DNA of 64,000 bases from Actinomycetota bacterium (GCA_046330185.1 JAXLTF010000005.1:96360-160359); one strand, 5' to 3'; counted from the first letter of the stretch, positions 34,150 to 58,555 are shown. Made by a program: numbers and translations. Notes: generated by a model from the letters alone, not told the origin.

Positions 34150-35619
34150 TCAGCTGCCGACCAGCGTCGAGATCCCCGCGGCGTCCGCGAACGGGGTCGG
34201 GAAGACGAACAGGGCCACGATCGCGATCGTCGCGAGGGCGACCACCGCGGTGACCAGCGCCGGCGACCTGAGCGGGGACTCGTCGACGGCCGGCTCGAAG
34301 ATCATCTCCCGCGGCACCGCCAGGTAGTAGTAGATGCTCACGACCGAGTTGATCAGCATGATCACCGCGAGCGAGAGGCCGAGCCCGCCGCCCCGGTCGA
34401 TGGCGACCCGGAAGATCAGGATCTTGGCCCAGAACCCGCCCGTCGGCGGGATCCCGGCCAGCGAGATCATGAACGTGGTCATCCCCACCGCCATCAGCGG
34501 AGCCGTCCGGATGAGCCCGGCGAAGTCCTTGAACAGCAGCAGTGGGTGACGGCGGCTGACCGCGGTCGCCACGGCGAACGCGCCCAGGTTCATCACGCCG
34601 TAGATCAGGATGTAGGCGACCGCCGCCGCGAACGCGTCCTTGTTCGTCGCGGCATCGTTCGTCACCAGCGCGAACGGGAGCAGCATGTAACCGGCCTGCG
34701 CGATACCGGAGTACGCGAGGAGCCGGACGACCTGGTTCTGCTGCAGCGCGACCAGGTTCCCCACCGACATCGTGGCGATCGAGAAGAACGCGAAGATCGG
34801 GACCCAGAACTCCCACTGCCCTATGAACGCCACGAACATCAGCTGCAGCAAGCCCGCGAAGCCCGCCGCCTTCGATGCCACCGCGAGGAACGCGGCGACC
34901 GGAACGGGGGCGCCCTCGTACGTGTCGGGGGCCCAGAACTGGAACGGGAACGCCGAGACCTTGAACGCGAACCCGACCACGACGAACAGGATCGCGGCCA
35001 GCGCCAGCGTCTCCTGGTCCGAGGGGAGGTTCCCCAGCCTGGCGGCGATCGCGGACAGGCCGGTCTCGCCGCGGGTCACGCCGTAGATGAGGCTCATCCC
35101 GAACAGCATCACGGCGGTCGACAGGACGCCGATCAGGAAGAACTTGAGCCCGCCCTCGTTCCCAAGCGGGTCCGCCTTGCGGAAGGCGGCCATCAGGAAG
35201 CCCGGGGCGGAGACCAGCTCGAGCGAGATGAACAGCAGCAGCAGGTCGCGGCTGGCCGGCATCAGCATGCAGCCCAGGAACGAGGTGAGCAGGAGGAAGT
35301 AGTACTCGCCCTGGTAGAAGCCTCCCTCCCGGAAGTAGCGGAGAGAGATCGCGAGCACCACGATCGCGACGACCAGGAAGAAGATCTGGAACAGCACCGC
35401 GAAGTTGTCGACGACGAACGTGCCTCCGAACGTCTCGCGCGGGAGGCTCCCCAGGAGGGTGAGCTCCGCGATCAGCGTCGCGACGACGCCGATCATCGAC
35501 AGCGGCATCGCGAGCCACTTGCGTTGAGGGGAGAGGAAGACGTCGACGACCAGGACCACGACGATGGTCCCGGACAGGATCAGCTCGGGCAGGATCGCGT
35601 GGTAGTCGATCGCGCTCAT
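34150..35619 (-). CDS. nuoN: NADH-quinone oxidoreductase subunit N (partial cluster 1)
   Basis: 489 aa antiporter-like subunit; MSAIDYHAILPELILSG. Confidence 0.9.
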   Translation of the reverse strand: MSAIDYHAILPELILSGTIVVVLVVDVFLSPQRKWLAMPLSMIGVVATLIAELTLLGSLPRETFGGTFVVDNFAVLFQIFFLVVAIVVLAISLRYFREGGFYQGEYYFLLLTSFLGCMLMPASRDLLLLFISLELVSAPGFLMAAFRKADPLGNEGGLKFFLIGVLSTAVMLFGMSLIYGVTRGETGLSAIAARLGNLPSDQETLALAAILFVVVGFAFKVSAFPFQFWAPDTYEGAPVPVAAFLAVASKAAGFAGLLQLMFVAFIGQWEFWVPIFAFFSIATMSVGNLVALQQNQVVRLLAYSGIAQAGYMLLPFALVTNDAATNKDAFAAAVAYILIYGVMNLGAFAVATAVSRRHPLLLFKDFAGLIRTAPLMAVGMTTFMISLAGIPPTGGFWAKILIFRVAIDRGGGLGLSLAVIMLINSVVSIYYYLAVPREMIFEPAVDESPLRSPALVTAVVALATIAIVALFVFPTPFADAAGISTLVGS

Positions 35620-35647
35620 CGGCGGCTCCCGGGGGCATCGGCCACGT

Positions 35648-37174
35648 CTACGCTCCGAACAACCCCATCAGCGACGCGACGGCGCTGTCGGTGACCCCGA
35701 ACACCAGCCGGGGGAACAGCCCCAGCACCAGGATCCCGACGAGCAGCGGGAGCCACGCGAGCCACTCGACCGTGAGGATGTCGCTGAACGGATGCTCCCG
35801 CCAGTTCTCCGGCATCACGCCCAGGTTCACCCGCTGGAGCATCCACAGGAAGTACCCCGCGGTCAGGATCGTCCCGATCCCGCCCGCGATCATGAACGCG
35901 CGGAACAACGCGACGTTCAGCCCCGGGCCGGGCTCGAACGAGGACAGCAGGGCCATGACCTCGCCCCAGAACCCGGCCAGGCCGGGGAGACCCAGGGACG
36001 CGATCGCGACGAACGCGAATATCCCGGCGAGCCTGGGCATCTTCTGGGCCATCCCGCCGCCGATGACCGCGATCTCTCGCGTGTGGTAGCGGTCGTAGAT
36101 GGACCCGACGCAGAAGAAGAGCATCCCCGTGATCACGCCGTGGGCGACCATGCCGAAGATCGCCGCCTGGATCCCGATCTCGGTGAGCGTCGCGATCCCG
36201 AGCATCACGAACCCCATGTGTCCGACGGAGGAGAACGCGATCAGGCGCTTCAGGTCCTTCTGCGCGAGGCACGCCAGGGCCGCGTAGACGATGGCGATCG
36301 CCGCCAACCCTCCGATCCAGGGCGCGTACGCCTGCGCGCCCTCGGGCAGGACCGGCAGCGCGATCCGGATGAACCCGTAGGTGCCCATCTTCAGCATGAT
36401 CCCGGCCAGCAGGACGGAGCCGATGGTGGGGGCCTCCGTGTGCGCGTCGGGCAGCCACGTGTGGAACGGCCACATCGGCACCTTGACGGCGAACCCGAGC
36501 GCCACCGCCCCGAACACGATCAGCTGGAACGTGTGGCTGAACCCGCCGCCGGCGCCGAACTCGGTCAGCCGTACCAGGTCGAAGGTGTGCGGCTCCGGAC
36601 CCTGGAAGTACATCGCCAGGAACCCCAGCAGCATGAAGATCGACCCAAGCAGGGTGTACAGGAAGAACTTGATCGCCGCGTACTCGCGGTTCGACGACCC
36701 CCAGATCCCGATCAGGAAGTACATCGGGACCAGCACCATCTCCCAGAAGACGAAGAACAGGATGAGGTCGAACGCGATGAACGTCCCGGCCATGCCGGTC
36801 TCGAGCAGCAGCATCAGGGCGATGAAGGCCTTGGTGCGGCCCGGGTCCGGCACGTACTTCCAGGTGTAGATCGCGCAGAGGAACGACAGGACGAAGGTCA
36901 GCACGTACAGCGGCATCGAGATGCCGTCGATCGCGACGTGGTAGCGGGCGCCGATCGCCGGGATCCACGGGACGTCGAGCGTGAACTGGAGCCCTCCGTG
37001 CGCGTAGTCGAAGCCCGCGGCGATCGCGATCGCCAGGACCAGGGCGGCGCCGCTGATGCCGATCCCCAGGCCGCGGGTCAGCCGATCCTTCTCCTTAGGG
37101 ATGAACATGATCACCAACGCGCCCGCCACGGGCAGCAGCGTGGTGATCGTGATCGCCGACTCCTGCCAGTTCAT
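35648..37174 (-). CDS. nuoM: NADH-quinone oxidoreductase subunit M (cluster 1)
   Basis: 508 aa; MNWQESAITITTLLPVAGALVIMFIPKEK. Confidence 0.9.
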   Translation of the reverse strand: MNWQESAITITTLLPVAGALVIMFIPKEKDRLTRGLGIGISGAALVLAIAIAAGFDYAHGGLQFTLDVPWIPAIGARYHVAIDGISMPLYVLTFVLSFLCAIYTWKYVPDPGRTKAFIALMLLLETGMAGTFIAFDLILFFVFWEMVLVPMYFLIGIWGSSNREYAAIKFFLYTLLGSIFMLLGFLAMYFQGPEPHTFDLVRLTEFGAGGGFSHTFQLIVFGAVALGFAVKVPMWPFHTWLPDAHTEAPTIGSVLLAGIMLKMGTYGFIRIALPVLPEGAQAYAPWIGGLAAIAIVYAALACLAQKDLKRLIAFSSVGHMGFVMLGIATLTEIGIQAAIFGMVAHGVITGMLFFCVGSIYDRYHTREIAVIGGGMAQKMPRLAGIFAFVAIASLGLPGLAGFWGEVMALLSSFEPGPGLNVALFRAFMIAGGIGTILTAGYFLWMLQRVNLGVMPENWREHPFSDILTVEWLAWLPLLVGILVLGLFPRLVFGVTDSAVASLMGLFGA

Positions 37175-37193
37175 CGGTGCCTCACGCTCCCTC

Positions 37194-39161
37194 TCACGCG
37201 ATCCTCACGAACACGATCGTCAGCGCGATCACGCCCACGAACAGCGCCACCGCGTACCACTGCACGTTGCCGCTCTGGATGAACCGGAGCGCGGCGCCGA
37301 AGCCGCGCGTCACCTGGCCGGCGCCGTTCACCGCGCCGTCGATGACGTTGCGGTCGAACCAACCGATCGCGCCGGACGCGCGGCGCGTGACGTGCGCGGC
37401 CCCGTTCACGATGCCGTCCAGCACGTGCTGGTTGAACCAGTAGGCCCCCGCCGAGACCGAGTCGCGTATCGGGTAGACGATGCCCCTCAGGTAGACGTCG
37501 TCCAGGTAGTACTTGTGCTCCAGGATCCGCGAGAGCGCGCCCAGCTCGAGCGTCGGGTCGGGGTCGCGGTACCTGCGGTACACGACGAAGCCCGCCACGG
37601 CTCCGGCCGCGGCCGCGGCCGTCGAGAGCAGCGCGACCCACGCCACGAAGCTGATCTCCTCCGGGTGCTCCAGGAAGACCCAGTCGAAGAACACGGCGCC
37701 GGTCGCCGCGGCCCCCAGGAGCCCGACGAACAGCGTGGCGCCGGCCAGCGCGACCAGGGGCCCGGTCATCGAGGCGGGCGACTCGTGCGGATGCGCCTCG
37801 CCCCGGTACTCGCCCGTGAACGTCATCATCACCATGCGGGCGGTGTAGAAGGCCGTGAGGAGCGCCGTGATCACGAAGACCGCGAAGGCGACCTCGTGTC
37901 CGACGGAGGCGGCCACCAGCAGCTCGTCCTTCGACCAGAAGCCCGCGAGCGGCGGGATCCCCGCCAGGGCGAGCGACCCGATCGCGAAGGTCCAGAACGT
38001 GATCGGCATCGGGCGTCGCAGGCCGCCCATCTCGCGCATGTCGTTCGAGTGCACGGCGTGGATCACCGAACCAGCGCCCAGGAACAGGAGCGCCTTGAAG
38101 AAGGCGTGGGTGAACAGGTGGAAGAACGCGGCGTTGCGCCCGGCCTCTCCTAGCGACATCGCGAGCACCATGTATGCGAGCTGCGAGACCGTCGAGTACG
38201 CCAGGACCTTCTTGATGTCGAACTGGACCAGGGCAAGCAACGCGGCGCCGAGCATCGTGATGCCGCCAACGATGCCGACCACCTGCAGCACGAACGGGTC
38301 GGCTTCCAGGAAGACCTGGAACATGCGGCCCACCAGGTAGACGCCGGCGGCGACCATCGTGGCGGCATGGATCAGCGCCGAGACGGGCGTGGGCCCCGCC
38401 ATCGCGTCGGGGAGCCAGACGTGCAGCGGGAACTGGGCCGACTTGCCGATCGTGCCGCCGAACAGCAACAGCGCCGCGGCCGAGACCAGGGCCGGAGACA
38501 CGGCCGGTCCGCCGACCAGCTCGGAGATGGCCTGGATGTTCGAGGTCGTGAACCCGGTCGCGAAGATCAGCGCGAAGATCCCGAACATGAACGGAACGTC
38601 GCCGACGCGGGTCGTGAGGAACGCCTTGATCGCTGCGCTCGAGTTCTCCTTCGCCTCGTACCAGTGGCCGATCAGCAGGTAGGAGCAGATGCCCATGACC
38701 TCCCAGCCGACGAGCAACTGGATCAGGTTGTCGGCGATCACGACGTTCAGCATCGCGCCGGTGAACATCGACAGGACCACGTAGAACCACGTGAACCGCA
38801 CGTCGCCGTGCATGTACCCGAGCGAATAGACGTGAACGCAGAGCGAGACCGAGGTGACGACGACCAGCATCACCGCGGTGAGGCCGTCGACGTACTGGCC
38901 GAGCTCGACGTGGAACGGGCCCACCGAGAACCAGGGGACGCTGCTGGCGTACACGCTGCCGCCCTGGACGAAATGCCAGAGCACGGCGAGCGACATCACG
39001 AACCCGGCGCCCACGGCCGCGATCCCGAAGCCGGAGCCCTTGCCGGGGGCGCGCTTGCCGAAGAACAGGATCAGGGCGGCCGACACGAACGGCAGCAGGG
39101 CTATCACCCAGGTGTACCGGATGATCCCGGAGGCGGCCTCGTGCGCGGTCTCGGCTACCAC
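37194..39161 (-). CDS. nuoL: NADH-quinone oxidoreductase subunit L (cluster 1), long form with C-terminal extension
   Basis: GTG start overlapping the nuoK stop; [23 protein letters not shown]-terminus; about 656 aa. Confidence 0.85.
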
Positions 39162-39457
39162 TTGAGCAGGTTCACCTCGTCCACGTTGATCGTCGCGCGA
39201 TTGCGGAACAGCAGGATCACGATCGCCAGGCCGATGCCGACCTCGGCGGCCGCAACGGCGATCACGCACCGCGCGCACACCTGACCCGTGATGTCGCCGA
39301 GCTGGGAGGCGAACGCGACCAGGTTCACGTTGACCGCGTTCAGCATCAGCTCGATCGACATGAGCACCATCACAGCGTTGCGGCGCGCCAGGACCCCGTA
39401 GACCCCGGCCGAGAACAGGAACGCCGAGAACATCAGCACGAGCGGCAGCCGGATCAC
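39155..39457 (-). CDS. nuoK: NADH-quinone oxidoreductase subunit K (cluster 1)
   Basis: About 100 aa from a GTG overlapping the nuoJ stop (GTGA); the upstream track ORF portion is R/P-rich. Confidence 0.8.
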
Positions 39458-39960
39458 GAGCCCTCGTCCTTGCGGGCCAGGACCACCGCGCCGATCAGGG
39501 CGGCCAGGAGCAGGAACGAGATCGCCTCGAACGGCAGGATGTAGGACCGGAACATCACGGACCCGATCTGCTCGGTAGTCGCGTGGGCGGGCTCGAACGC
39601 CCAGGCGTCCCCGCGGACGTCGAAGGCGTCCTGGATCATGAAGACCAGGCCGGCGAAGATCCCGATCCCGACGAGGGCCCCCAGCCACCGCCGCTGGTTG
39701 TCCAGCGCGTCACGGCCGATCGGCGCCTTCGTGAGCATCAGGCCGAACAGGAACAGGATCACGATCGCGCCCACGTAGATCAGGATCTGGACCCAGGCGA
39801 CGAACTCGGCCCCGAGGACCAGGTAGACGCCGCCCACCGAGAGCAACGACAGGACCAGGTACAGGGCGGCGTGGACGACGTTGCGGGCGGTCACGACCGC
39901 GATCGCCGATGCCGACCCGACCACGGCGAGGACGATGAACGCGTACTCCTGTCCCGACAC
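39454..39960 (-). CDS. nuoJ: NADH-quinone oxidoreductase subunit J (cluster 1)
   Basis: [43 protein letters not shown]; start approximate. Confidence 0.8.
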
Positions 39961-39962
39961 GC

Positions 39963-40514
39963 CTATGCGCCCTCCCCGACCGCGGCCGGCTCCGGGGATG
40001 CCTCGGCCTCGACCGCCTCGGCGCCCTCCTCGAGCGGCGGCGGTGGCAGCACCGTGTAGGTCCACTCCTCGAGCCGCTCCTTCTCGTGCGTCATCAGGTC
40101 GATCTCGTGCTCCCCGTACTCGAACTCCGGGCTCCAGAACAGGGCGTCGAACGGACAGACCTCAACGCAGATCCCGCAGTACATGCATAGCGCGTAGTCG
40201 ATCGCGAAGCGGTCGAGCACCTTGACGGAGCGCGCGCGGCCACCGCCGGCGGGCTCATGCGCCTCCTTGTGGGCATCGATGTAGATGCACCAGTCCGGGC
40301 ACTCGCGCGCGCACTTGTAGCAGACCGTGCAGTTCGCTTCCTTGAGGGCGATCACGCCACGGGTCCGGGCCGGGAGATCCGGCTTGACGTGCGGATACTG
40401 CTGCGTGACCGCGGGCTGCAGCATCGTCTTCAGCGTGACCCCGAGCCCCTTGAGCAGCCCCTGGCCGGCGCCGCTCTGCGGCGCGTCGTTGCGGTCCTCG
40501 GCGTCCGATGCCAC
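39963..40514 (-). CDS. nuoI: NADH-quinone oxidoreductase subunit I (2x[4Fe-4S]) (cluster 1)
   Basis: [12 protein letters not shown] and [12 protein letters not shown] ferredoxin motifs. Confidence 0.9.
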
Positions 40515-40536
40515 GACCCCTCCCTCCGACGCGTTC

Positions 40537-41544
40537 CTAATGGACCGCGACCTTCACGACCGCCACGACCATGATCTGCAGCAGCGCGAGCGGGATCAGC
40601 ACCAGCCAGGAGAACCGCTGCAGCTGATCCTCGCGCATGCGTGGGTAGGTGGCCCTGAGCCAGATCACGATGAACGAGAGCACGCCGATCTTGCCGAGCA
40701 TCATCAGCGGCCCGGGGATGGGGATCCCCGGTAGCGGCAGGTAGCCGCCCAGGAAGAGCACCGACGCGATCCCGGCAAGCGCCACGATCCCGCCGTACTC
40801 CGCCAGCAGGAAGAACGCGAACTTCAGCCCCGTGTACTCGGTGTATGCCCCGAAGATGATCTCGGAGTCGGCGACGGGCATATCGAACGGCGGCCGAGTG
40901 AGCTCGGCCAGCGACGCCATCATGAAGATCAGGAACCCGATCAGCTGCGGGATCACGAACCAGAAGTCGGTCTGTGCCTCGACGATCCCCACCAGCGAGA
41001 GCGTTCCCGCCTGCATCACGACCGCGGCGGCGGCGAGCACCAGCGGCAGCTCGTAGGCGATCAGCTGTGCCGCGGCGCGCAGGGCTCCGATCAACGAGAA
41101 CTTGTTGGCGGAGGACCAGCCGGCCATGAGCACGCCGATCACCGACACAGAAGACATCGCGAGCACGAAGAAGATCCCGATGTCGAGGTTGACCGCCCAG
41201 ACCGAGTCGCTGAACGGCAGCACGACCAGGATCGCGATGTACGGGATCATCGCCACGGCCGGCGCGAGCGAGAAGACGCTGCGGTCGGCCGCCTGCGGGA
41301 CGACGTCCTCCTTCTGCACGAACTTCACGCCGTCGGCGACGAGCTGAGCCCACCCGTGGAACGCCCCGGCCTCCATCGGGCCGAGCCTGGCCTGCATGTG
41401 CGCCAGGACCTTGTGCTCCAGGTACCCGATCGCCAGCGGCACGACCAGGAAGAACGCCAGCACGAAGACCGTCTTGACGATCACGACGATCCAGACGTTG
41501 TCGAACCACTGTTCGACGAACGACGCGCCGGCCTGCGCGATCAC
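40537..41544 (-). CDS. nuoH: NADH-quinone oxidoreductase subunit H (cluster 1)
   Basis: GTG start overlapping the nuoC stop; conserved ...[23 protein letters not shown]... Confidence 0.85.
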
Positions 41545-42068
41545 TCCTCCTCTTCCTCCTCGCCCTCCACGGCCCCCGGCCAGGGCTTCGCCTCGCGGGT
41601 CATCAGCGGGAAGTCCTTGCGGAGCGGGTGGCCCTCGAAGGGCTCGGAGAGGAGCAGCTTGACCGGCTTCGGATGGCCCTCGAACCGGATACCGAACATC
41701 TCGAGGACCTCCCGTTCGTGCCAGTCCGACGTGGGGAACAGGTCGGACACGGTCGGGCACACCGGGTCCTCATGAGGCAGGACGACCTTCACACGGACGT
41801 TGTGGTGGTGAAGGGTCGAGAACAGATGCGTCACGACCTCGAAGCCCCGCTCCGGACCGAAGTCGACACCGCCCGTGAAGTCGCAGTAGTCGCAGGCGAG
41901 CTCGGGTTCGTCCCGCAGGAAGCGGCAGATGTCCCGGTAGCGCTCGACGGCGACCGTCGCCACCGCGTGCCCGTGCTGCTCGGCGACGTCGGCGATGTCG
42001 TCTCCGAAGCGGGCCCGCAGCCGGGCGGCGACGTCCTCAGGCGTGAGCCGGCGCGGCGTCCCGACCAC
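41541..42068 (-). CDS. nuoC: NADH-quinone oxidoreductase subunit C (30-kDa) (cluster 1)
   Basis: [20 protein letters not shown] and PLRKDFP motifs; 175 aa; followed directly by nuoH with no nuoD. Confidence 0.85.
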
Positions 42069-42549
42069 CGAACTTCTCCTGGATGTCCTCGTCCTTGATC
42101 TTCTGCTGCAGCATCACGATGCCGTGCAACAGGGCCTCGGGCCGCGGCGGGCACCCCGGGACGTACACGTCCACGGGGACGATCTGGTCCACGCCCTTCG
42201 TGACCGAGTAGGAGTCCCAATACGGTCCGCCGCAGTTGGAGCACGACCCGAACGAGATGACGTACTTCGGATCGGGGATCTGGTCGTACACGCGCTTGAG
42301 AGCGGGGGCCATCTTGTCGGTCAGGGTCCCGGCGACGATCAGCAGGTCGGCCTGCCTGGGGCCGTGCGCGAACGGGATCACGCCGAGGCGGATGAAGTCG
42401 TGCTTGGATGTGGAGGTCGCGATCAGCTCGATCGCGCAGCATGCCAGCCCGAAGTTCATCACCCACAACGAGTAGCGGCGTCCCCAGTTCAGGAGGAACT
42501 TCACGGGCTGGATCCGCGGCAGGGGGGTCCGCTCGGTGATCAGGCCCAC
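42037..42549 (-). CDS. nuoB: NADH-quinone oxidoreductase subunit B (cluster 1), N2 cluster ligands retained
   Basis: [18 protein letters not shown] and PGCPP cysteine motifs; start adjusted to a GTG 8 nt before the nuoA stop. Confidence 0.85.
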
Positions 42550-42947
42550 GTCAGCACGCCCTTCTTCCAGGCGTAGAGCAGCCCCACGGCCAAGATCCCG
42601 ATGAAGATGCCCATCTCGACGACCGCGGTGTACCCGAGCGACTCGAAGACCCGCGCCCACGGGAACAGGAACACGCTCTCCACGTCGAACACCACGAAGA
42701 GGAACCCGTAGACGTAGTAGCGGATCTGGCTCTGCGACCATCCCTCGCCCACCGGGTCGATCCCGCACTCGTAGGTGGTGAGCTTGGCGGGGAGCGGCCG
42801 GCGGGGGGCGATCAGGCGGGCGGCCCCGAAGGCCACGGCCACGAGCGCGGCCCCAGCGATCACGACCGCGAGCACGACGCCGTAGGACTGGTAGTAGCTA
42901 GTCACGCTTGTGAACGCTTTCCCGAGCGCGGATCCTAGCAGGATCAC
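42540..42947 (-). CDS. nuoA: NADH-quinone oxidoreductase subunit A (cluster 1)
   Basis: [12 protein letters not shown]...[11 protein letters not shown]; starts 1 nt after the polyprenyl synthase stop. Confidence 0.85.
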
Positions 42948-43961
42948 TCATCGCGGATCCTCAGCTCCGCAGCGGGCCGCCAGGAAGCGCGCGAGCTGCC
43001 GGAACGCGTGGCGGGCGGGCCCGTCGGGAAGCGTCCGCGTGAGCCGGATCGCGCGTTCCACCTCCTCCGTCACCGCCCGTCGAGCCGCCTCCACCGAGCC
43101 CCCGCCCTGCACGATCTCGAGCGCTCGATCCAGCAGCTCGCCGTCGGGCGGTCCGTGCGACAGGATGCGCGCCAGCTCCGCGCGGTCCGGGTCGTGGGCG
43201 AGCGCGTGGAGCACGGGAAGCGTGTACACGCCCTCCTTCAGATCCTGCCCGGGCTCCTTCCCGAGCTCGAGCTGGGTCGAGGTGATGTCCATGATGTCGT
43301 CCGACAGCTGGAAGGCCATGCCCAGGGCGTGGCCGAACGCCTCCAGGACGTCGATCTGCTCGATGGTTGCATCCGAAAGCATCCCGCCCAGGCGGCACGA
43401 GGTGCCGATCAACCACGCGGTCTTGCGGCGGATGATCTCGAGGTAGGCCTCCTGCTCCTGTTCGACCCTGCCCGCGGCGTCCACCTCCCGGATCTGCCCG
43501 TCGCACAAGATCGCGATCGTCCGGGCGAGGAGGCGGCAGACCTCGGTCCCCAGCTCCGTCGAGATCTCCGACGCGCGCGCGAACAGGAAGTCGCCGGTGA
43601 GGATCGCGACCGTGTTGTCCCAGCGCAGGTTCGCCGAGGGCGAGCCGCGACGGCTCTCGGCCTCGTCGATCACGTCGTCGTGGTACAGCGTGGCGAGGTG
43701 GACCAGCTCGATCGCGACCGACCCGGGGATCAGGCGGGGATCGGCGGCGTCGCCGAAAGTGCCGGCCAGCAGCACCAGCATCGCCCGGAAGCGCTTGCCG
43801 CCGGCCGCGATCAGGTACGACGAGGTCTCGGACAGCAGCCCGGAGGTCTCGACCCGGACCGCCTTCTCGAGCGCCTCCTCCACCCGGTCCAGCCGGCCAC
43901 GGATCTCCGCTTCGAGGGCCGGGTCCGGCGACTCCAGCCCCGGGAGCACGCGAAGGCTCAT
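42948..43961 (-). CDS. polyprenyl diphosphate synthase (trans-isoprenyl diphosphate synthase family), embedded between the two nuo sets
   Basis: FARM LYHDDVIDEAESRRG and second motif FQLSDDIMD; start ATG 4 nt after the nuoN2 stop. Confidence 0.85.
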   Translation of the reverse strand: MSLRVLPGLESPDPALEAEIRGRLDRVEEALEKAVRVETSGLLSETSSYLIAAGGKRFRAMLVLLAGTFGDAADPRLIPGSVAIELVHLATLYHDDVIDEAESRRGSPSANLRWDNTVAILTGDFLFARASEISTELGTEVCRLLARTIAILCDGQIREVDAAGRVEQEQEAYLEIIRRKTAWLIGTSCRLGGMLSDATIEQIDVLEAFGHALGMAFQLSDDIMDITSTQLELGKEPGQDLKEGVYTLPVLHALAHDPDRAELARILSHGPPDGELLDRALEIVQGGGSVEAARRAVTEEVERAIRLTRTLPDGPARHAFRQLARFLAARCGAEDPR

Positions 43962-43965
43962 CGGC

Positions 43966-46963: not shown

Positions 46964-46967
<4 letters not shown>
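45414..46967 (-). CDS. nuoM: NADH-quinone oxidoreductase subunit M (cluster 2)
   Basis: GTG start ([16 protein letters not shown]) overlapping the nuoL2 stop; about 517 aa. Confidence 0.85.
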
Positions 46968-48873
<1,906 letters not shown>

Positions 48874-48880
<7 letters not shown>

Positions 48881-49179: not shown

Positions 49180-49799
49180 GGGACGGGCTCCGCCTGCGCC
49201 GGGGCCGGCGAACCGCCCGGATCCGAAGGGTCGTCCGGGCCGGCCGCCGCCATCACCGCGGCGGCTTCCGCCTGGGTGATCGCGCGAGCCTTGCGGTGCG
49301 CCAGGATCATCGCCGCGATCGCCGCGATGATCAGCAGGATCGAGGTGACCTCGAAGGGGAAGAAGTAGTCCCGGAACAGCACGCGCGCGAGCGCCTGGGC
49401 GTTCCCGGGGGCGTTGACCTCGTCGAACCCGTCGGGGGCGAGGGTCGCGAACCCGATCCCGGCGCGGATCGCCAGGGTCACCTCGAGGACGAACGCGACC
49501 CCGAACGCGATCGCCAGCCAACGCTGGCCCGACAGCCGCTCGCGCAGATCCTCGGTCCGGTCGACGCCCAGCAGCATGATCACGAACAGGAACAGGACCA
49601 TGATCGCGCCCGCGTAGACGACGATCTGCACGGCGAACAGGAACGGCGCGTCGAGGATCAGGTAGAAGACGGCCAGGCAGAAGAAGTTCACGATCAGGAA
49701 CAGCGCCGCGTGGATCGCGTTGCGCATCATCAGCATCCCGATCGCGCTCGCCACCGAGATCGGCGCGAACACCCAGAAGGCCAGGAGGTCGGCCGGCAC
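49176..49799 (-). CDS. nuoJ: NADH-quinone oxidoreductase subunit J (cluster 2) with Pro-rich C-terminal tail
   Basis: [40 protein letters not shown]. Confidence 0.85.
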
Positions 49800-50294
49800 C
49801 TAGCGCCCCTCGCGGTCCACGGGATCGGTGCCCAGCTCGGGCGGACCCTCGAGCAGGCGCTCCTTCGTCCACACCGCGTCCTCGCGGCTCGTGAACGCGA
49901 GCTCGTAGTAGCTGGTGAGGGTGAGCGCCCGCGTGGGGCAGGCCTCGACGCAGAACCCGCACATGATGCAGCGCAGGTAGTTGATCTGGTAGTCCTTCGC
50001 GTACCGCTCCCCCGGCGACACCGGGTCATCGGGATCGTTGTCCGCGCCCTGCACCCAGATCGCGTCCGCGGGACACGCGTACGCGCAGAGCTCGCACCCG
50101 ATGCACTTCTCCAGCCCGTTCTCGTGCCGGTTCAGTCGGTGTCGGCCGATGTGGGAACGCTCGGGCGGAGGCACGATCTCGGCCGGGTACCGCTCGGTGT
50201 TGTCCCGGCGGAAGGTCTGCTTCCAGACGGTCCCCAGCCCCTTCGCGATGGCCGACGCCGCGTCCACGAACGTCCTCGGCTCGCGTTCGCTCAC
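49800..50294 (-). CDS. nuoI: NADH-quinone oxidoreductase subunit I (cluster 2)
   Basis: [12 protein letters not shown] and [12 protein letters not shown]; GTG start overlapping the nuoH2 stop; upstream 260 aa of the track ORF are junk. Confidence 0.85.
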
Positions 50295-51436
50295 ACGGAC
50301 ACCCCTTCGTCGGATGAGCCCGGCTCCGACGGCTGCGGCCGGCGGGGAGCCACGAGCGGCGCGAGCAGCGAGACCAGCAGCACGGCGCCCAAGATCGCGG
50401 CCGCGCCCACCAGGATCGCGCGACGCCCGAAGTGATCCGGCAGCACCACGACCGCTCCCGTGATCATCACCCAAACCAGGCCGAACGGGATCAGGACCTT
50501 CCAACCGAACGTCATCAGCCGGTCGTAGCGCATCCGGGGGAGGGTGCCGCGAACCAGGATGTAGACGTAGATGATCGCGGTGACCTTCACCAGGAACCAC
50601 ACGATGGGCCACAGGCCGTGCAGGAACTCGGGGGCGGGGCCGCGCCAGCCGCCCAGGAACAGCGTCGTGGCGATCGCGGCGACCGTGACCGTGTTCACGT
50701 ACTCGCCCAGGTAGAACATCGCGAACTTGATGCCCGAGTACTCGGTGTGGAACCCGGCGACGAGCTCGGTCTCGGCCTCGGCCAGGTCGAACGGCGGACG
50801 GTTCGTCTCGGCCAGCCCGCACACCAGGTACACGACGAACGCCGGGAGCTGCGGGATCACGTTCCACACGCGCTCCTGCGCGTCCACGATCTCGCTCATC
50901 CGCAGGTGTCCCGAGTACATCAGGACCGCGACGAGCGCCAGGCCCATCCCGACCTCGTAGGAGATCATCTGCGCCGTCGAGCGGATGGAACCCAGCAGGG
51001 GGTAGTTCGACCCGCTCGACCAGCCGGCCAGCACGATCGAGTAGACGCCGATCGAGGTCATCGCCAGCACCCACAGGATCCCGATGTTCAGGTCGGAGAT
51101 CTGCATCGGCACCTCGCGCCCGAAGAGCTCCACCGGCGCGCCGAACGGCACGACGGCGAAGGCCAGGAACGCCGGCAGCATCGCGATCACCGGGGCGATC
51201 AGGTAGACGCCGCGGTCCGCGTTCGCCGGCGTGATGCCCTCCTTGAAGAACAGCTTGATCCCATCGGCGAGCGTGATCAGGATCCCCCGTGGCCCCGCCC
51301 GCAGCGGACCGGTGCGGGTCTGGAAGTCGGCGATCACCTTGCGCTCCATCCAGATGTAGAGCATCACGGCGATCAGGAGCGCGAAGAACACGATCACGAC
51401 GCGTGCGATCAGCAGGACCCAGTCGAGCCAGTCCAT
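50291..51436 (-). CDS. nuoH: NADH-quinone oxidoreductase subunit H (cluster 2)
   Basis: 381 aa; [34 protein letters not shown]. Confidence 0.9.
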
Positions 51437-53857
51437 CTACGCGCCCACCTCCGCGCGTTCGGCGTCGTCGGCGCCCGATCCCGTGTCCAGCGCCTCCACG
51501 ACCGCGGGCGTCGTGAACGTCCCCGACAGCAGCGTGTTCGCCGCGAGACCCGGCTGGTTGAAGGGCACGAACGCGGAGCCGGCAGCGACGTGAGGGGTCA
51601 CCCTGACCGGGAGATCTGCCCGCCCCGCCGCGGTCCGCACCGCCGCGCGCCCGCCGTCAACGATCCCGCGGACCGAGGCGTCGTCCGGATGGACCTCGAG
51701 CACGGCCTCGTCCTCGAGGGCCGCCTTGAGCTCGACGGCCCGCTCCGAGAGCCGGCCCTCATCGACCAGGAGCGGATACGTGAAGAGCGCCAGCTCGCCT
51801 TCGCCGAGCGCCCCCCGCTGCGGAACCGGGGCCCGCTCCAGGGGTGTCCCGACCGGCGCGACCCCGCCCTCCATGGGGGCCAGCAGCCGGCCCATCTCCT
51901 CGTGCAGCTCGTCGAGGGTCTCGAACCCCAGATCGCCTCCGGCCGCCAGGGCGAGGCTCGCGAAGATCTCCCAGTCGGGCAGCGAGATGCTCCGCGGGCC
52001 GCGGACCGGCCGCAGGCGCTGCGAACGTCCCTCCCACGTCGTGACGTGGCCGTCCTTCTCCAGGTACGGCGCCGCCGGCAGGAAGGCGTCGGCGAAGGGC
52101 TCCAAGGAGCCGAGCTCGAGCGACTGGACGACCTTGCGCGGCACGTTCTCCAGGGCCCGTCGCGCGAGCGCCGCGTCGGGGTAGTCCCGCAACGGGTCGA
52201 TGCCGATCAGGAACAGCACGTCCAGCTCGCGCGACGCGCATGCCTCCAGGATCTCCCGCCAGCCCCGGCCCTCCTCGGCCGCCAGGATCGGACCCCACCG
52301 CGCCTCCACCTCCGCCCGCTCCGCGTCGGCGCCGAACCTGCGACCGCCGGGCAGGAGCGACGGATGGACGCCGGCGATCAGCGCGCCGCGGTCGTTCGCC
52401 CGCCGCGTCGCGAACGCGAACCGCGCGCCGGTGGACCGGGCGAGGTCGCGCGCTGCCTCAACACCCCCCCGGTGCGCCGCGAGCCGCGGACCCGCGATCA
52501 CGAGGCCGCGCTCGCCCGCGTCGCGGAGAGCCGCCACGACACCCGCGAGCTCGGCCGCGCCGCCGTCGGGGTCCAGCAGCCCGGCCTCGTCGCCGGGCCG
52601 GCACAGGACGTGCTCCGCGACGTCCCACAGGCGCGTGCGCCGCGGGTGCAGCACGACGATCCGGACGCCGCGTCGGGCGGCCTTGCGCAGCCGCAGGTGG
52701 AGGATCGGCACCTCCTGCTCGGCATCCAGGCCCGCCACCAGGATCACGTCGGCGCGCTCGACGTCCGCGTAGGTCGTCGAGAGGGTGCCAGCCGCCAGCC
52801 GCTCCTCGACGTCGCCCGCCCCCTCGTCGCGCCGGTGATCCAGGTCGTTGGTGCTGAAGACCGTGCGCGCGAGCTTCGACAGCGCGTAGTAGTCCTCGTC
52901 CATCAGCCGACCGCCGGTCAGGAACGCGACCCGCCGGCCCCGGCTCCATCCCGCGACCCGCGTCAGCACCTCGCCGAACGACGCGGGCTCCAGCCCGTGG
53001 TCGCGCAGCAAGGGGGTCGTGATCCGATCGGGGGCGTCGGCGAACCGGAAGGCGAACCGGCCCTTGTCGCAGATCCATGCGTCGTTGACGTCCAGGTTGT
53101 CACGGGCGACCTGTCGGACGACCTCTCCGCGGCGGAGATCGAGCTTCATGTTGCAGCCGGCGCTGCAGTGCGGGCAGATCGTGTCCACCGTCGACAGGTC
53201 GAACGGGCGGGCCACGAACCGGTACGGCGTCGAGGTAAGGGCCCCGACGGGGCAGATCTGGATCGTGTTGCCGCTGAACGGCGACCGCAGATCCTCCCCC
53301 GCCGCGATCGCGACCTGCTGGAAGGCGCCGCGGGCGAACATGTCGATGAACCGGTCGCCCGAGATCTGGTCGCAGAAGCGGGTGCAACGGGCGCACAGGA
53401 CGCAGCGCTCCCGGTCGAGGTTCACCAGCGGGGACAGCGGCAGCGGCTTGCGGAAGACCCGCTTGGCCTCCCGATAACGGCTCTCACCCGGACCGAACGC
53501 GAGGGTCTGATCCTGCAGCGGGCATTCGCCGCCCCGGTCGCAGACGGGGCAGTCGAGCGGGTGGTTGAGCAGCAGGAACTCCAGGTTCGCGACCTGCGCC
53601 TCGCGCGCCTCGTCGCTCGCGTTCTGGGTCCTGACGACCATCCCGGGCGCGACGGTGGTGGTACAGGACGTGAAGAGCTTGCGCTGGCCCTCGATCTCGA
53701 CGTAGCACTGACGGCAGGCGCCGACGGGGTCGAGGAGCGGGTGATCGCAGAACCGCGGGATCTCGATGCCCAGATGCTCGGCCGCACGGATGATGAGCGT
53801 CCCGGCGGGGACCGTCACCTCCTTGCCGTCGATCGTGAGGGTTACGAGGTCGCTCAT
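51437..53857 (-). CDS. nuoG: NADH-quinone oxidoreductase subunit G (cluster 2)
   Basis: Start [40 protein letters not shown] at an ATG overlapping the nuoF2 stop; 2Fe-2S and 4Fe-4S Cys motifs; about 806 aa. Confidence 0.9.
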
Positions 53858-55218
53858 GCCCCGGCCCCGGTCAGGCTCGCCTCGACGCCTCCGTCGGCGG
53901 GCTGCTCCATGCCTCCGCCCGCGGCGGGCTCCTCGACGCCCGGGCCGACGCCCGTGACCGGGCATCGGCCCTCCCGCACGTGGGCCTCGTACTCCTCGGG
54001 GAAGTGCTTGAGCGTGGACGCGATCGGGGATACGGCGCCGTCGGCCAGGGCGCAGAACGCGCGGAACAGGATGTTCCGTCCCATGTCGTCCATCAGCGGG
54101 AGGTCCCTCGCGCTCCCGTACCCGCCCTCGATCCGCCCGAGCACCCGCGCGGCCCACCACGTGCCTTCGCGGCACGGCGTGCACTTGCCGCACGACTCGT
54201 GCGCGTAGAACTGCACGAGCCGGCGCGCCGCCTCGACCATGCAGTCCGTCTCGTCCAGGACGATCACCGCGCCGGTACCCAGCAGCGAGCCGGCCTCGGC
54301 GATCGACTCGAAGTCCAGTCCGACGTCCATGTGCTGGGCCGTCAGGAACGGCGTCGACGATCCGCCCGGCGTCCAGGCCTTGAGCGCCCTGCCGCCCAGC
54401 ACGCCGCCCGCGTGCTCCTCCAGCAGGACCCGGAGCGGCGTCCCGAGCGGCAGCTCGTAGTTGCCCGGGCGCTCGACCTTGCCGGAGACCGTGAACATCT
54501 TCGTGCCCGGTGACTTCTCGGTGCCCCAGCGGCGGAACCAATCCGCGCCGTTGCGGACGATCGGCGGGACGTTCATCAGCGTCTCGACGTTGTTGATCAC
54601 CGTCGGGCTGGCGTACAGGCCCTCGACCGCGGGGAACGGCGGCCGCAGCCTAGGCTGGCCACGGAAGCCCTCGAGCGAGGAGAGCAGCGCCGTCTCCTCC
54701 CCGCAGATGTATGCCCCGGCGCCGCGGTGCAGGACGACGTCCAGGTCGTAGCCGCTGCCCATCACGTCACGCCCCAGGTATCCTGCGGCGTACGCCTCGT
54801 CCAGCGCGCGCTGCACGACGATGCCCGGCCACAGGTACTCACCGCGGATGTAGATGAACGCCTGGTGACACTCGATCGCGCGCGCCGCGATGGCGACGCC
54901 TTCGATCAGTGCGTGCGGCTCGCGCTCGACCAGCTCTCGGTTGTTGCACGTGCCCGGCTCGGACTCGTCGAAGTTGCATACGACGTAGGTGGGCTTGCCG
55001 GTGTCCTGGGGGACGAACGACCACTTCATGCCCGTGGGGAACCCCGCGCCGCCGCGGCCGCGGAGCCCGGAGTCCTTCACGAGCTGGATCAGGTCGGGAC
55101 CGGACGTCGCCAGCGCGGAGCGCAGCGCCGCATAGCCGCCGGCCGCCTCGTAGCCCGCGAGCGGGATCACGGAGTCGTCGCCCCAGTGGGCGGTGAGGAT
55201 CCGTGCCTCCTCGCTCAC
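53854..55218 (-). CDS. nuoF: NADH-quinone oxidoreductase subunit F (cluster 2)
   Basis: GRGGAGFPTGMKWSF FMN/NADH site; GTG start overlapping the nuoE2 stop (GTGA). Confidence 0.9.
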   Translation of the reverse strand: MSEEARILTAHWGDDSVIPLAGYEAAGGYAALRSALATSGPDLIQLVKDSGLRGRGGAGFPTGMKWSFVPQDTGKPTYVVCNFDESEPGTCNNRELVEREPHALIEGVAIAARAIECHQAFIYIRGEYLWPGIVVQRALDEAYAAGYLGRDVMGSGYDLDVVLHRGAGAYICGEETALLSSLEGFRGQPRLRPPFPAVEGLYASPTVINNVETLMNVPPIVRNGADWFRRWGTEKSPGTKMFTVSGKVERPGNYELPLGTPLRVLLEEHAGGVLGGRALKAWTPGGSSTPFLTAQHMDVGLDFESIAEAGSLLGTGAVIVLDETDCMVEAARRLVQFYAHESCGKCTPCREGTWWAARVLGRIEGGYGSARDLPLMDDMGRNILFRAFCALADGAVSPIASTLKHFPEEYEAHVREGRCPVTGVGPGVEEPAAGGGMEQPADGGVEASLTGAGA

Positions 55219-55826
55219 ACGACCACCTCGGTGGGCTCGGGTGCGCCCCCGCTCGGCGGCAGCCCCTCGAGGCCCGCCAGGATCCGCGACGCGTGGCGGA
55301 AGCTCGTGACGGCAGGGCCTCGGGCCGGCCCGGGGACCGTGCCGGCGCGCAGCGCATCCACCAGCTCGGCCACCCGCTCCGGGGTCACATGGTCGTGGTT
55401 CGCGGCGTTGACCTGAACGACCGGCGCCAGCTCGCAGACCCCGAGGCACTCCTCCTCGTGCACCGAGAAGACGCCGTCGTCGGAGAGATCGCCCCCGTGG
55501 GGGATCCCGGTCGCCCGGTGGGCGGCCTCGTAGACGTCCTTGGCGCCCCGCAGGGCGCACGACAGGTTCGTGCAGACCGCGATCAGGTGGGTGCCCGTCT
55601 CACGCAGCCTCAGCATCGTGTAGAAGCTGCCGACCGCCTCGACCTCCGCCGTCGTGATCCCCAGGAGCTCGCCGACCTCGCGCAGCGCGCCCCGAGTGAC
55701 GTGGCCCTCGATCGACTGCGTGAGGTAGAGCAGCGGCATCACGGCGGAGCGTTCGCGCCCGGCCGGGTACCTCGCGATGATCGCGCGCGCCTCCTCGAGC
55801 GTGGTTCCCTCGAACAGCGCCATCAG
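55215..55826 (-). CDS. nuoE: NADH-quinone oxidoreductase subunit E (cluster 2)
   Basis: [20 protein letters not shown]...; thioredoxin-like 2Fe-2S CxxxxC...C motifs; ATGA overlap with nuoD2. Confidence 0.85.
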
Positions 55827-57088
55827 CGGTCCACCCCGCCCATCACGGGATCGAGGCTGGCGATCGCGGCGATCGCGTCGGCCACGAGATAGCCCTCGAC
55901 CATCTTCGCGGTCGCCTGCAGGTTCACGAACGACGGGTCGCGGATCTTCACGCGGTACGGCTGGTAGCCCCCGTCCGAGACGATGTAGAAGCCGAGCTCT
56001 CCGCGTGGCGACTCGACCGCCTGATAGACCTCGCCGGCCGGGACCTCGACGCCCTGGGTAACCATCTTGAAGTGGTTGATCAGGGCCTCCATCGACTCCT
56101 CCATGATGTGGCGAACGTAGGCGGGGTCGTTGCCGATGCCGTCGGGCCCGACCGACAGACGCGAGGGCCATGCCACCTTCGGGTCGGCGACCATGACGGG
56201 ACCGGGCTCCTCCAGTCGCTCGAGGCACTGCTCGACGATCCGCATCGACTCGCGCATCTCGTCGAGGCGGATCCGGTACCTCGCGTAGGCGTCGGCGTCG
56301 TCGAGGACGGGAACATCGAACTCGAACGTCTCGTAGCCGCAGTAGGGCGCATCCTTGCGCAGGTCGGCCGCGACGCCGGCCGAGCGCAGGATCGGCCCCG
56401 TGACGCCCAGCGCGAGGCAGTCCTCGGCGGACAGGACCCCGACGCCCTGGTTGCGCTGCAACCAGATCGGATTGTCGTCCAGGATCGCCTCGTACTCGTC
56501 GATCCTGATCGGCATCTCACGCAGGAAGTCGCGGACGTGCTCCTCCGCCCCCGGCTGCAGATCCATGATCACGCCGCCGATCCGGAAGTACTCGTGGTTC
56601 ATCCGCAGGCCCGTGGTCGCCTCGAAGATCTCCATCAGGACCTCACGCTCGCGGAAGCCGTAGAGCATGATCGACACCGCGCCCAGCTCCATGCCGCCGG
56701 TGGCCAACCACACCAGGTGCGACGCGATCCGATTCAGCTCGCAGAACAGCACCCGCAGGAGCTGAGCGCGCGGCGGCGCCTCGATCCCCAGCAGCCGCTC
56801 GACCGCGAGGCAGTACCCGAGCTCGTTGAAGAACGGCGAGAGGTAGTCGGCTCGGGTGACGTAGGTGACGCCCTGCTGCCAGGTCCGGTACTCGGTGTTC
56901 TTCTCGATCCCGGTGTGCAGGTAGCCGATCACCGGTTCGCACGAGATCACCGTCTCTCCGTCGAGCTCCAGGAGCAGACGGAGCACCCCATGGGTCGAGG
57001 GGTGCTGGGGACCCATGTTGATGATCATCGTCTCCTGCCGGATCTGGCCGGAGGCGTCGCGCTGCAGGCGGTCGGTTGGAGGGGTCAT
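55823..57088 (-). CDS. nuoD: NADH-quinone oxidoreductase subunit D (cluster 2)
   Basis: MTPPTDRLQ...[27 protein letters not shown]; about 421 aa; ATGA overlap with nuoC2. Confidence 0.9.
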
Positions 57089-57591
57089 GGTCGGGTGATG
57101 GTTCGCCGGTCCACCGGCGGGATGAACGCGCCGACGAAGCGCGTGTTCACGCCGCCGAGCTCCTCGTCCTTCCGCAACGGGAACCCGTCCCAGTCGTCGG
57201 GGAGCAGGATCCGCTTCAGGTCCGGGTGCCCGGCGAACGTCACGCCGAAGAAGTCGTACGTCTCGCGCTCGTGCCAGTTCGCCGTCGGGAACAACCCCGT
57301 GACGGTGGGCACCCATGGATCGTCGTTCGGGACCCCGACCTTGACCCGAAGGCGGTGCGAGTGCCGGAGCGATCGCATCTCGTAGGCGATCCAGAACCGC
57401 GGATCCTCCCCGGGTCGATCTACGGCTGTGACCGACGAGCAGAAGCTCATATCGAGCTCCGCGTCGTCGCGGAAGGTGGTCAGGGCCTCCAGCAACTCGT
57501 CGCGATCAACCACTACCGTCGCCTCGTCCCGCGCCACGAGCACGTCCGGCCAGCGTTCCCGGATCCGCTCGGCGAGCTCCCGCGGCATCAT
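57085..57591 (-). CDS. nuoC: NADH-quinone oxidoreductase subunit C (cluster 2)
   Basis: [10 protein letters not shown]...[40 protein letters not shown]. Confidence 0.85.
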
Positions 57592-58106
57592 CTGAACGTC
57601 TCCGCGGTGCGGACCTTCTCGTGCAGCTTCAGGATGCCGAACATCAGCATCTCGGGCTTCGGTGGACAGCCGGGCACGTACACGTCGACCGGGACGATGG
57701 TGTCGACCCCCTGGACGATCGCGTAGTTGGTGAACATCCCTCCGGCCGACGCGCAGACGCCCATCGCGATCACCCAGCGGGGCTCGGGCATCTGGTCGTA
57801 GATCCGGCGCAGGACCGGGGCCATCTTCTGCGACACGCGGCCCGCGACGATCATCAGGTCCGATTGGCGAGGCGAGGCGCGGAAGAGCTCCATCCCCCAA
57901 CGCGAGAGGTCGTATCGCCCGGCGCCGGTCGACATCATCTCGATCGCGCAGCAGGCCAGACCGAACGTCGCCGGCCACATCGACTGCTCGCGCGCCCACC
58001 CGACGGCGCGGTCCAGCGTGGTGAGCAGGACGCCCCGACGGACCTCCTCCTCCACCTCCTCGGGGGTCTTCCCTGGGCTAACGCCCGGGATCCGCTCAAC
58101 CGGCAC
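57588..58106 (-). CDS. nuoB: NADH-quinone oxidoreductase subunit B (cluster 2)
   Basis: [20 protein letters not shown] and PGCPP motifs. Confidence 0.9.
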
Positions 58107-58539
58107 CGACGGCCTCCCGCTCGGGCTCCTCCTCCGCCGCCGCGACGGGCTGTTCCGCTAGGCCCAGATCCTCCGACCAGTCCAGGCCCCCCTTCCGCCA
58201 CACGTACGCGTACGCGACGAACACCAGCGCGATGAAGACCGCCATCTCGACCAGCCCGAACAGGCCGAGGTTGCGGAACTCCACGGCCCACGGGAACAGG
58301 AAGATCATCTCGATGTCGAAGATGATGAACAGCATCGCGACCACGTAGAACTTCACCGGGAACCGCTCGCCCTTCGGGAGCCGGACCGGGTCGTTGCCGC
58401 ACTCGTACGGCATCAGCTTCACGGGGTTCGGCCGGTTGGGCCGCAGGAGCGACGACGCGAACAACGACGCCACGGCGAAGACGAACGCGAGGACCGCGAG
58501 GACCAGGATCGGCAGGTACTCGCTCAACACGGGCGGCAT
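58096..58539 (-). CDS. nuoA: NADH-quinone oxidoreductase subunit A (cluster 2)
   Basis: [11 protein letters not shown]...[11 protein letters not shown]. Confidence 0.9.
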
Positions 58540-58555
58540 CCTAACCGGGGGTGCC

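Follow-up and report, generated by a model that had tools for sequence, protein, structure and literature searches.

Streptomycetes possess, besides the canonical genes of complex I, a second group of nuo genes which is known as nuo2. In Streptomyces coelicolor the canonical nuoA-N genes are SCO4562-4575 and the nuo2 genes SCO4599-SCO4608, with 23 genes between them by locus number (PMC9239103, PMC9739823). The Streptomyces nuo2 cluster was described as a separate operon; two Streptomyces papers call its function unclear, and a joint, hybrid machinery of nuo2 and the canonical set was suggested (PMC3765725, PMC9239103, PMC8388888). A separate nuoD2 was reported elsewhere in the genome (PMC3765725, PMC8388888) and nuo2 proteins were seen by proteomics (PMC9739823). 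Here we describe both kinds of gene cluster within one stretch of 64,000 nucleotides from an uncultured Actinomycetota bacterium of soil (GCA_046330185.1, JAXLTF010000005.1:96360-160359), referred to as the window. A complete nuoA-N set (set 1) is followed on the minus strand by a gene for a long-chain polyprenyl diphosphate synthase and by a partial set nuoA-B-C-H-I-J-K-L-M-N (set 2).

The arrangement is a compact version of the known pair of nuo and nuo2 and not a novel obligate super-operon. It is likely that the genes form a compact respiratory array of separately promoted modules rather than one obligate operon. For a genome scan the finding is largely ordinary: known operons, compactly arranged. 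A previous interpretation of the window (the sequence-only reading in the following) had attached the label "2" to the complete set; we follow the literature, which calls the partial set nuo2.

Relation of the two sets to known nuo clusters

Set 1 (43966-58530) comprises 14 of 14 subunit genes, contiguous and in the order A to N, with domains and ligands complete. The NADH/flavin mononucleotide module (NuoE, F, G) is present and NuoD scores above the curated threshold (TIGR01962, 573 bits against a cutoff of 459). By its gene content, set 1 codes for a standard NADH:menaquinone complex I, for which activity and proton pumping are predicted. In comparison with the canonical 14-subunit complex I of Mycolicibacterium smegmatis (8e9g) and Thermus thermophilus (4hea) it has the same genes in the standard order, and it differs only in the flanking menJ-like gene and the polyprenyl synthase gene, which lie with it inside one array.

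For the classification of set 2, an alignment of NuoC2 was used to fetch 80 genomic loci, which were typed by tblastn with the proteins of the window. The best matches of the window are metagenome-assembled genomes (MAGs) labelled only as Actinomycetota or Actinomycetes. In a neighbour-joining tree of NuoH, set 2 and its close relatives (L001-L004) fall into one clade without nuoD ("D-less") together with the nuo2 clusters of Streptomyces, Micromonospora, Actinoplanes, Actinomadura, Nonomuraea and Planomonospora. Amino acid identities to Streptomyces nuo2 are 70-77 % for B2, about 60 % for H2 and 66-70 % for I2. Both clusters have the order A2-B2-C2-H2...N2 without nuoD, E, F and G, htpX downstream and a canonical nuoA-N in the same genome. 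Because of its position in the D-less clade, these identities and the gene order, set 2 is identified as the orthologue of Streptomyces nuo2 (SCO4599-4608) and not of the canonical set. Streptomyces nuo2 was said to be without NuoC and NuoL (PMC9239103); contrary to this, NuoC- and NuoL-like genes were present in every Streptomyces nuo2 locus fetched (tblastn).

The successive sister groups of this clade in the NuoH tree, L020/L023 and then L036/L069, are all Actinomycetota MAGs and carry an 11-gene type A-B-C-D-H-...-N with a full-length nuoD between C and H. The spacing from C2 to H2 was at most 960 nt in 20 of 20 D-less loci measured, which is too short for nuoD, and in the window nuoC2 and nuoH2 overlap by 4 nt, leaving no space for nuoD between them. 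On this tree, nuo2 descends from an 11-gene set with nuoD, with a single loss of nuoD at the root of a large clade. Many of the D-less clusters have htpX as the next gene.

The location of set 2 is where the window departs from Streptomyces. In S. coelicolor, nuo2 sits 23 genes from the canonical set and beside the AbrC two-component genes, whereas nuo2 of the window begins 42 nt after the synthase gene; a separate location, as is typical of Streptomyces nuo2, does not apply to set 2. The head-to-tail fusion had been called unusual, which is overstated. It is present in seven of the seven close relatives that span the junction. In six of them (L001-L004, L162 and L165; independent assemblies from different samples, NuoC2 72-83 % identical) the order nuoN-synthase-nuoA2 is uninterrupted. 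The seventh, L164 (NuoC2 82 %), has an opposite-strand gene of 607 amino acids between nuoN and the synthase gene. This insert (6042-7865, minus strand of the locus) displays a GC1>GC2<GC3 pattern, a signal-peptide-like start and a weak Peptidase_S55 match. In L020 and L069, which represent deeper lineages, a second set containing nuoD directly follows nuoN, with no synthase gene between. In the Streptomyces, Micromonospora, Actinomadura and other cultured actinomycetes sampled, nuo2 stands without a set-1 gene in up to 10 kb fetched upstream. The synteny comparison which the sequence-only reading had proposed thereby shows the tandem layout to be typical of the lineage of the window, where it is probably ancestral.

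Composition and possible partners of nuo2

No second nuoD, nuoE, nuoF or nuoG was found in the whole window (tblastn). NuoB2 retains the four ligands of the N2 cluster (CC...C...GCPP) and NuoI2 both CxxCxxCxxxCP motifs, so that the ligands of clusters N6a and N6b are intact. NuoK2 retains both membrane glutamates, NuoH2 the conserved loop, and the antiporter-like subunits L2, M2 and N2 their Glu/Lys residues. All open reading frames (ORFs) of set 2 are intact and have a strong third-position GC (GC3) bias. The ten paralogue pairs of set 1 and set 2 share 28-52 % protein identity and about 66 % DNA identity, the latter in patches only; by this measure the divergence of the two sets is old and not the result of a recent duplication. 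Measured against L165, the ratio of nonsynonymous to synonymous substitution rates (dN/dS) is 0.08-0.38 in set 2, compared with 0.18-0.36 in set 1, and set 2 is accordingly under purifying selection. The nearest solved homologues of NuoB2 and NuoH2 are subunits of complex I, far ahead of those of membrane-bound hydrogenase (MBH) and formate hydrogenlyase (FHL).

Judged by these features, set 2 is a conserved, selected and redox-capable partial complex. It is more than one of two complex-I-like membrane arms, as it had been taken for before, since genes for NuoB, NuoC and NuoI with complete cluster ligands belong to it as well. It differs from Mrp-type cation/proton antiporters in that it encodes NuoB2, NuoI2 and NuoH2 with intact cluster ligands. 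With the 11-subunit enzymes, i.e., cyanobacterial and chloroplast NDH-1, archaeal Fpo and bacterial partial nuo (PMC3144371, PMC4453560), it shares the lack of NuoE, F and G. Set 2 is additionally without NuoD, which is among the core subunits of all members described of that group, and is therefore incomplete alone under the known architecture.

Two subunits show peculiarities. NuoB2 has an additional Cys three residues past the third N2 ligand (GSCSNCGG; GVCASAGG in NuoB1), and most NuoB proteins of the set-2 type, clusters still holding nuoD included, carry the signature G(A/S)C(S/A)NCGG. NuoC2 of the window comprises 175 amino acids and ends with EGEEEEEE, whereas its homologues in Streptomyces and Micromonospora, and also in some MAGs, bear acidic, Pro/Ala-rich low-complexity tails of about 100-330 amino acids without a Pfam domain (P0130, P0135, P0145; L008, L016, L037, L046). 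NuoC2 homologues of about 500 amino acids were considered as NuoC-NuoH or NuoC-NuoD fusions, which was rejected, as Pfam and the sequences give low-complexity acidic tails only.

Since NuoB2 with its N2 cluster and NuoC are retained, NuoD and the electron-input module would most likely be recruited in trans. The products of nuo2 are predicted to make up the whole proton-pumping membrane arm and, in addition, NuoB, NuoC and NuoI with the ligands of N2, N6a and N6b, without NuoD and NuoEFG. They would assemble as an alternative complex-I-type pump whose NuoD, and probably NuoEFG too, would be supplied by set 1 or by an unlinked nuoD2, as has been proposed for Streptomyces. We put forward only tentatively the more specific proposal that set 2, unable to build a quinone site by itself, borrows NuoD and probably NuoEFG from set 1, giving two complex I variants with a shared catalytic head, both under the control of Rex. 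If this is true, the variants would differ in their membrane arms and in NuoB, NuoC and NuoI, and the tandem layout would be a genetic trace of the dependence of nuo2 on set 1. The nuo2 cluster is conserved across Streptomyces and many other actinomycetes. The comparative facts from the window make the idea of a hybrid complex I directly testable.

It is rather doubtful that set 2 works alone, without NuoD or set 1, be it as a new ion-translocating module or as a redox enzyme fed at NuoI2/NuoB2. Such an enzyme would agree with the absence of nuoD from the cluster across a large clade, with the predicted promoter of its own (see below), and with the clade-specific extra Cys of NuoB2 and the variable length of the acidic NuoC2 tails. 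However, NuoC is retained, whose main structural partner in complex I is NuoD, and NuoB2 has all ligands of N2, which sits at the quinone site between NuoB and NuoD. To our knowledge, every solved relative contains a NuoD homologue, which likewise counts against an autonomous set 2. Furthermore, those genera with D-less nuo2 for which set-1 loci were fetched have a complete nuo too, and for Streptomyces there is the nuoD2 reported elsewhere in the genome (PMC3765725, PMC8388888).

Layout and predicted promoters and operators of the array

The coding map of the window was established by a GC3 frame plot, followed by Pfam and NCBIfam scans. With a G+C content of about 68-70 %, raw ORF lists are crowded with shadow ORFs. 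In the frame plot, the minus strand shows an unbroken run of coding segments between about 59.8 and 33.1 kb. Within this run the 25 consecutive genes named by the sequence-only reading were recovered in the same order, i.e., nuoA-N, the long-chain polyprenyl diphosphate synthase gene and nuoA-B-C-H-I-J-K-L-M-N, and all 25 score in the expected family (E = 1e-10 to 1e-120). The co-directional array extends further, upstream to a menJ-like gene and downstream to htpX. The features are as follows, in the direction of transcription; genes without a further remark were assigned by the Pfam/NCBIfam scan.

59856..59873, minus strand: Rex-operator-like site a, AAGTGAAGCCGTTCACGA, three mismatches, at the -35 position in the promoter predicted for the menJ-like gene
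59845..59850, minus strand: candidate -10 hexamer TACGCT, between the two Rex-like sites
59822..59839, minus strand: Rex-operator-like site b, TCGTGAAGCCTTTCACAA, one mismatch, with its end 18 nt before the GTG of the menJ-like gene
58556..59803, minus strand: menJ-like gene, flavoprotein of the geranylgeranyl-reductase family (TIGR02032), predicted menaquinone side-chain reductase
58538..58543, minus strand: -10 box TAGGAT of the predicted leaderless nuoA promoter, 7 nt upstream of GTG 58530
58096..58530, minus strand: nuoA, set 1 (PF00507, 5e-37; alternative start ATG 58539)
57588..58106, minus strand: nuoB, set 1 (Pfam; N2 ligands present)
57085..57591, minus strand: nuoC, set 1
55823..57088, minus strand: nuoD, sole copy in the window (TIGR01962)
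55215..55823, minus strand: nuoE
53854..55218, minus strand: nuoF (PF01512, PF10589)
51437..53857, minus strand: nuoG (NuoG domains)
50291..51436, minus strand: nuoH, set 1
49800..50294, minus strand: nuoI, set 1 (cluster ligands present)
49176..49799, minus strand: nuoJ, set 1
48874..49179, minus strand: nuoK, set 1
46964..48880, minus strand: nuoL, set 1
45414..46967, minus strand: nuoM, set 1
43966..45417, minus strand: nuoN, set 1
42948..43961, minus strand: long-chain trans-polyprenyl diphosphate synthase, GrcC1/HepT-like (PF00348; both DDxxD motifs)
42932..42940, minus strand: extended -10 box TGCTAGGAT, predicted set 2 promoter (TGnTAGnAT invariant in eight of eight sequences)
42908..42925, minus strand: Rex-operator-like site TCGGGAAAGCGTTCACAA, two mismatches, between the -10 box and the nuoA2 start
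42540..42905, minus strand: nuoA2 (the same 121-amino-acid start is called in relatives)
42037..42549, minus strand: nuoB2 (four N2 ligands and one extra Cys)
41541..42068, minus strand: nuoC2, 175 amino acids, acidic tail (4-nt overlap with nuoH2)
40537..41544, minus strand: nuoH2 (also placed by the NuoH tree)
39963..40514, minus strand: nuoI2 (both CxxCxxCxxxCP motifs present)
39454..39960, minus strand: nuoJ2
39155..39457, minus strand: nuoK2 (both membrane Glu residues present)
37194..39161, minus strand: nuoL2
35648..37174, minus strand: nuoM2
34150..35619, minus strand: nuoN2
33134..34027, minus strand: htpX, M48 membrane protease, 122 nt after nuoN2

Of the 24 junctions between the 25 genes, 18 overlap or abut: ten are exact 4-nt overlaps and eight are other overlaps or abutments (-1, 0, 0, -7, -7, -10, -11 and -32 nt). 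The remaining six are gaps of 2, 4, 19, 22, 28 and 42 nt. That almost every junction is a 4-nt overlap or a gap below 30 nt thus holds in outline, with other overlaps and abutments at eight junctions and one gap of 42 nt. This largest gap lies before nuoA2, where an abutment of 0 nt had been assumed; the likely start is GTG 42905. Since the ancient duplication the two sets have retained their junction architecture, with matching and unusual lengths for A/B (overlaps of 11 and 10 nt), J/K (4 and 4 nt) and K/L (7 and 7 nt).

Both nuoA genes are preceded by a promoter-like box. Counting both strands, the 64 kb contain only five copies of the hexamer TAGGAT, and each of the two gaps that precede a nuoA holds one of them, on the minus strand. 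One of the hexamers TAGGAT, TAAGAT and TAGAAT is located 5-10 nt before the nuoA start in 35 of 77 related metagenomic loci, compared with none in a coding control of 23,100 nt. The position of TAGGAT at nuoA of set 1 corresponds to the geometry of a leaderless promoter, and nuoA is probably leaderless. This geometry fixes the likely start codon at GTG 58530 instead of the ATG 58539 that had been proposed before. The leaderless nuoA promoter seems to be conserved far beyond the lineage of the window. Freshwater metagenome contigs of low-GC actinobacterial type (L121-L159) have CTTAGGATTTCGnnGTG or CTAAGATTTCA...GTG about 20 nt upstream of nuoA, without a menJ-like gene upstream. Before set 2, TG(C/T)TAG(G/A)AT is invariant in the window and seven relatives, whereas the rest of the gap between the synthase gene and nuoA2 has diverged, with lengths between 42 and about 110 nt. 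The tandem locus L069 likewise has a -10-like box near the start codon of its second set, and a similar box was found in the stand-alone nuo2 of L037.

The same gaps contain palindromes that resemble Rex operators. In Streptomyces avermitilis Rex directly represses nuoA1-N1 via TTGTGAANNNNTTCACAA (PMC5355995). With up to three mismatches, this consensus has three matches in the window compared with 0.18 expected, and all three are situated in promoter gaps of the array. Two of them (one and three mismatches) flank TACGCT, a hexamer which fits the actinobacterial -10 form TANNNT, within the gap of 76 nt before the menJ-like gene. The third precedes nuoA2 and is also present in L002, L164 and L165. 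Measured against the Rex regulon of Gram-positive bacteria (TTGTGAA-N4-TTCACAA), the palindromes of the array have one, two and three mismatches and occupy promoter positions. These predicted operators differ from known ones in standing before the menJ-like gene rather than before nuoA itself, with a second location before nuoA2; nuo2 is absent from the Rex targets listed in PMC5355995. Among 165 related loci (1.77 Mb), 60 of 93 Rex-like sites are located within 250 nt upstream of menJ, nuoA or nuoA2. About 40 related loci, including those of Micromonospora, Pseudonocardia and Glycomyces, have a site with no or one mismatch 12-130 nt upstream of a menJ-like gene preceding nuoA. Because two Rex-like operators precede the menJ-like gene, the unit is predicted to begin there, outside the interval (34150-58539) that the sequence-only reading had considered. 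Modest points for annotation are this start of the unit, the probably leaderless nuoA and the NuoC- and NuoL-like genes of Streptomyces nuo2.

In the modular organisation that we favour, module 1 would consist of the menJ-like reductase gene, nuoA-N and the long-chain polyprenyl diphosphate synthase gene, the latter translationally coupled to nuoN. Its predicted promoter before the menJ-like gene is flanked by two Rex-like operators, and a second, leaderless promoter would act directly at nuoA. Module 2 (nuo2, then htpX) would have an extended -10 promoter of its own with a Rex-like operator overlapping the predicted start site. Transcripts of module 1 can probably continue into module 2, which could also be expressed alone; such read-through is plausible because no terminator-like site was found in any gap. 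Rex is an NADH/NAD+ sensor, and both modules would be derepressed when NADH rises. A common sensor, and not obligate co-transcription, seems to link the regulation of set 2 to that of set 1.

Several points weigh against this model. We infer promoters and operators from the conservation of motifs alone. The Rex-like site before nuoA2 has two mismatches; L003/L004 have a degenerate version of it and L001/L162 none. Among the genes of the window that were scanned against Pfam, no rex gene appeared. A generic sigma-70 scan of 32-60.5 kb yielded no promoter, a scan which demands an E. coli-like -35 box. As regards the assembly of nuo2 products, we know of no characterised complex-I-type enzyme without a NuoD homologue, which makes this part of the model speculative; the search for a second nuoD covered the 64 kb of the window.

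The sequence-only reading had inferred from the dense packing that one obligate transcript of about 24 kb with coupled translation always yields both nuo sets and the prenyl synthase together. We regard this as improbable. All genes are indeed co-directional, no gap exceeds 42 nt, overlapping or abutting junctions prevail (18 of 24) and the fusion is kept in six close relatives. Of the two internal signals which had been named as speaking against a single transcript, terminator and promoter, only the second was found, as a prediction before nuoA2. The search for intrinsic terminators in 32-60.5 kb gave matches at chance level, all inside coding sequence and none in any gap. RNA folds of the three largest gaps were no better than those of shuffled sequences (z = -0.35, -1.04 and -1.28), offering no hairpin terminator or attenuator, and an Rfam scan of the window gave tRNA-Tyr only. 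The generic scans for promoters and terminators are uninformative for high-GC actinobacterial signals. Against the obligate transcript stand the conserved extended -10 box and the Rex-like operator in the gap before nuoA2, the -10-like boxes before the second set of L069 and nuo2 of L037, and the fact that orthologous nuo2 stands alone in most actinomycetes (PMC3765725). In L164, the opposite-strand gene between nuoN and the synthase gene rules out a common transcript of the two sets. Translational coupling within each set would fit the tight packing; an obligate single unit is unsupported.

That set 2 is a decaying duplication remnant or an artefact of repeat assembly can be dismissed with near certainty: it is incomplete, without D, E, F and G, but its divergence from set 1 (28-52 % protein identity; DNA about 66 %, patches only) excludes a misassembled repeat or a recent duplication, its ORFs are intact with strong GC3 bias and all catalytic ligands, its dN/dS (0.08-0.38) is as low as that of set 1, and the same arrangement recurs in independent assemblies from different samples.

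Among the chance-level terminator matches (three found, 3.4 expected) is a terminator-like hairpin with a T-rich tract at 37075-37088 on the plus strand, antisense within the 5' end of nuoM2. It may be meaningless, as the scan is at chance level. In Streptomyces a conserved antisense RNA over nuoL2/nuoM2 was described (PMC3765725), near the position of this hairpin.

Predicted menaquinone genes and surroundings of the array

Two enzymes predicted to act on the menaquinone side chain, the MenJ-like reductase and the long-chain synthase, bracket set 1. The MenJ-like protein passes TIGR02032 (224.9 bits, cutoff 158.8) and fails the MenJ equivalog (233 against 700), and its gene is located immediately upstream of nuoA in many relatives. 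The polyprenyl synthase, whose gene begins 4 nt past the nuoN stop, passes PF00348 and stays below the NCBIfam equivalogs NPPPS_Mycobact (282 against 600 bits) and HepT (256 against 457). It has both DDxxD motifs, with Ala/Thr at positions -5/-4 before the first one.

Upstream of the array the neighbourhood is respiratory throughout (59880-62689). The menJ-like gene is preceded by a PNPOx-family gene (59880-60347, minus strand) and by a polyprenyl-synthase-like ORF (60301-61218, minus strand), which matches only the N-terminal half of the family, has a high second-position GC and is possibly a pseudogene. This ORF overlaps a plus-strand CtaA/COX15-like gene, which is followed by a UbiA/CtaB-like gene (61046-62689); a redoxin gene is also found upstream of the array.

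At the downstream end, htpX follows nuoN2 in the lineage of the window and likewise in Streptomyces, Actinomadura and Phytohabitans (loci L016, L022, L031, L033, L045, L046 and L163-L165). The 122-nt gap between nuoN2 and htpX has the motif GGGCCTGTGAGAnCATCG in common with L164. The neighbourhood of nuo2 and htpX may reflect a functional link to membrane-protein turnover, or GGGCCTGTGAGAnCATCG may be a promoter element of htpX. Beyond the array, genes for a pyridoxal phosphate-dependent decarboxylase and a class-III aminotransferase lie on the opposite strand, as in relatives.

The rest of the window is composed of unrelated genes for metabolism and transport. Between 22000 and 28750 the G+C content drops to 0.635-0.644, compared with about 0.70 elsewhere. 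This region contains a gene for an HTH_17 (excisionase-type) protein (24997-25899), two ORFs without a Pfam match, and tRNA-Tyr (28659-28742), and it may be a mobile element integrated at the tRNA. At 11936-15509 a gene of the MttB family (trimethylamine methyltransferase-like) adjoins a flavin amine-oxidase-like gene, with a divergent HTH/cupin regulator; this group is unrelated to the nuo array.

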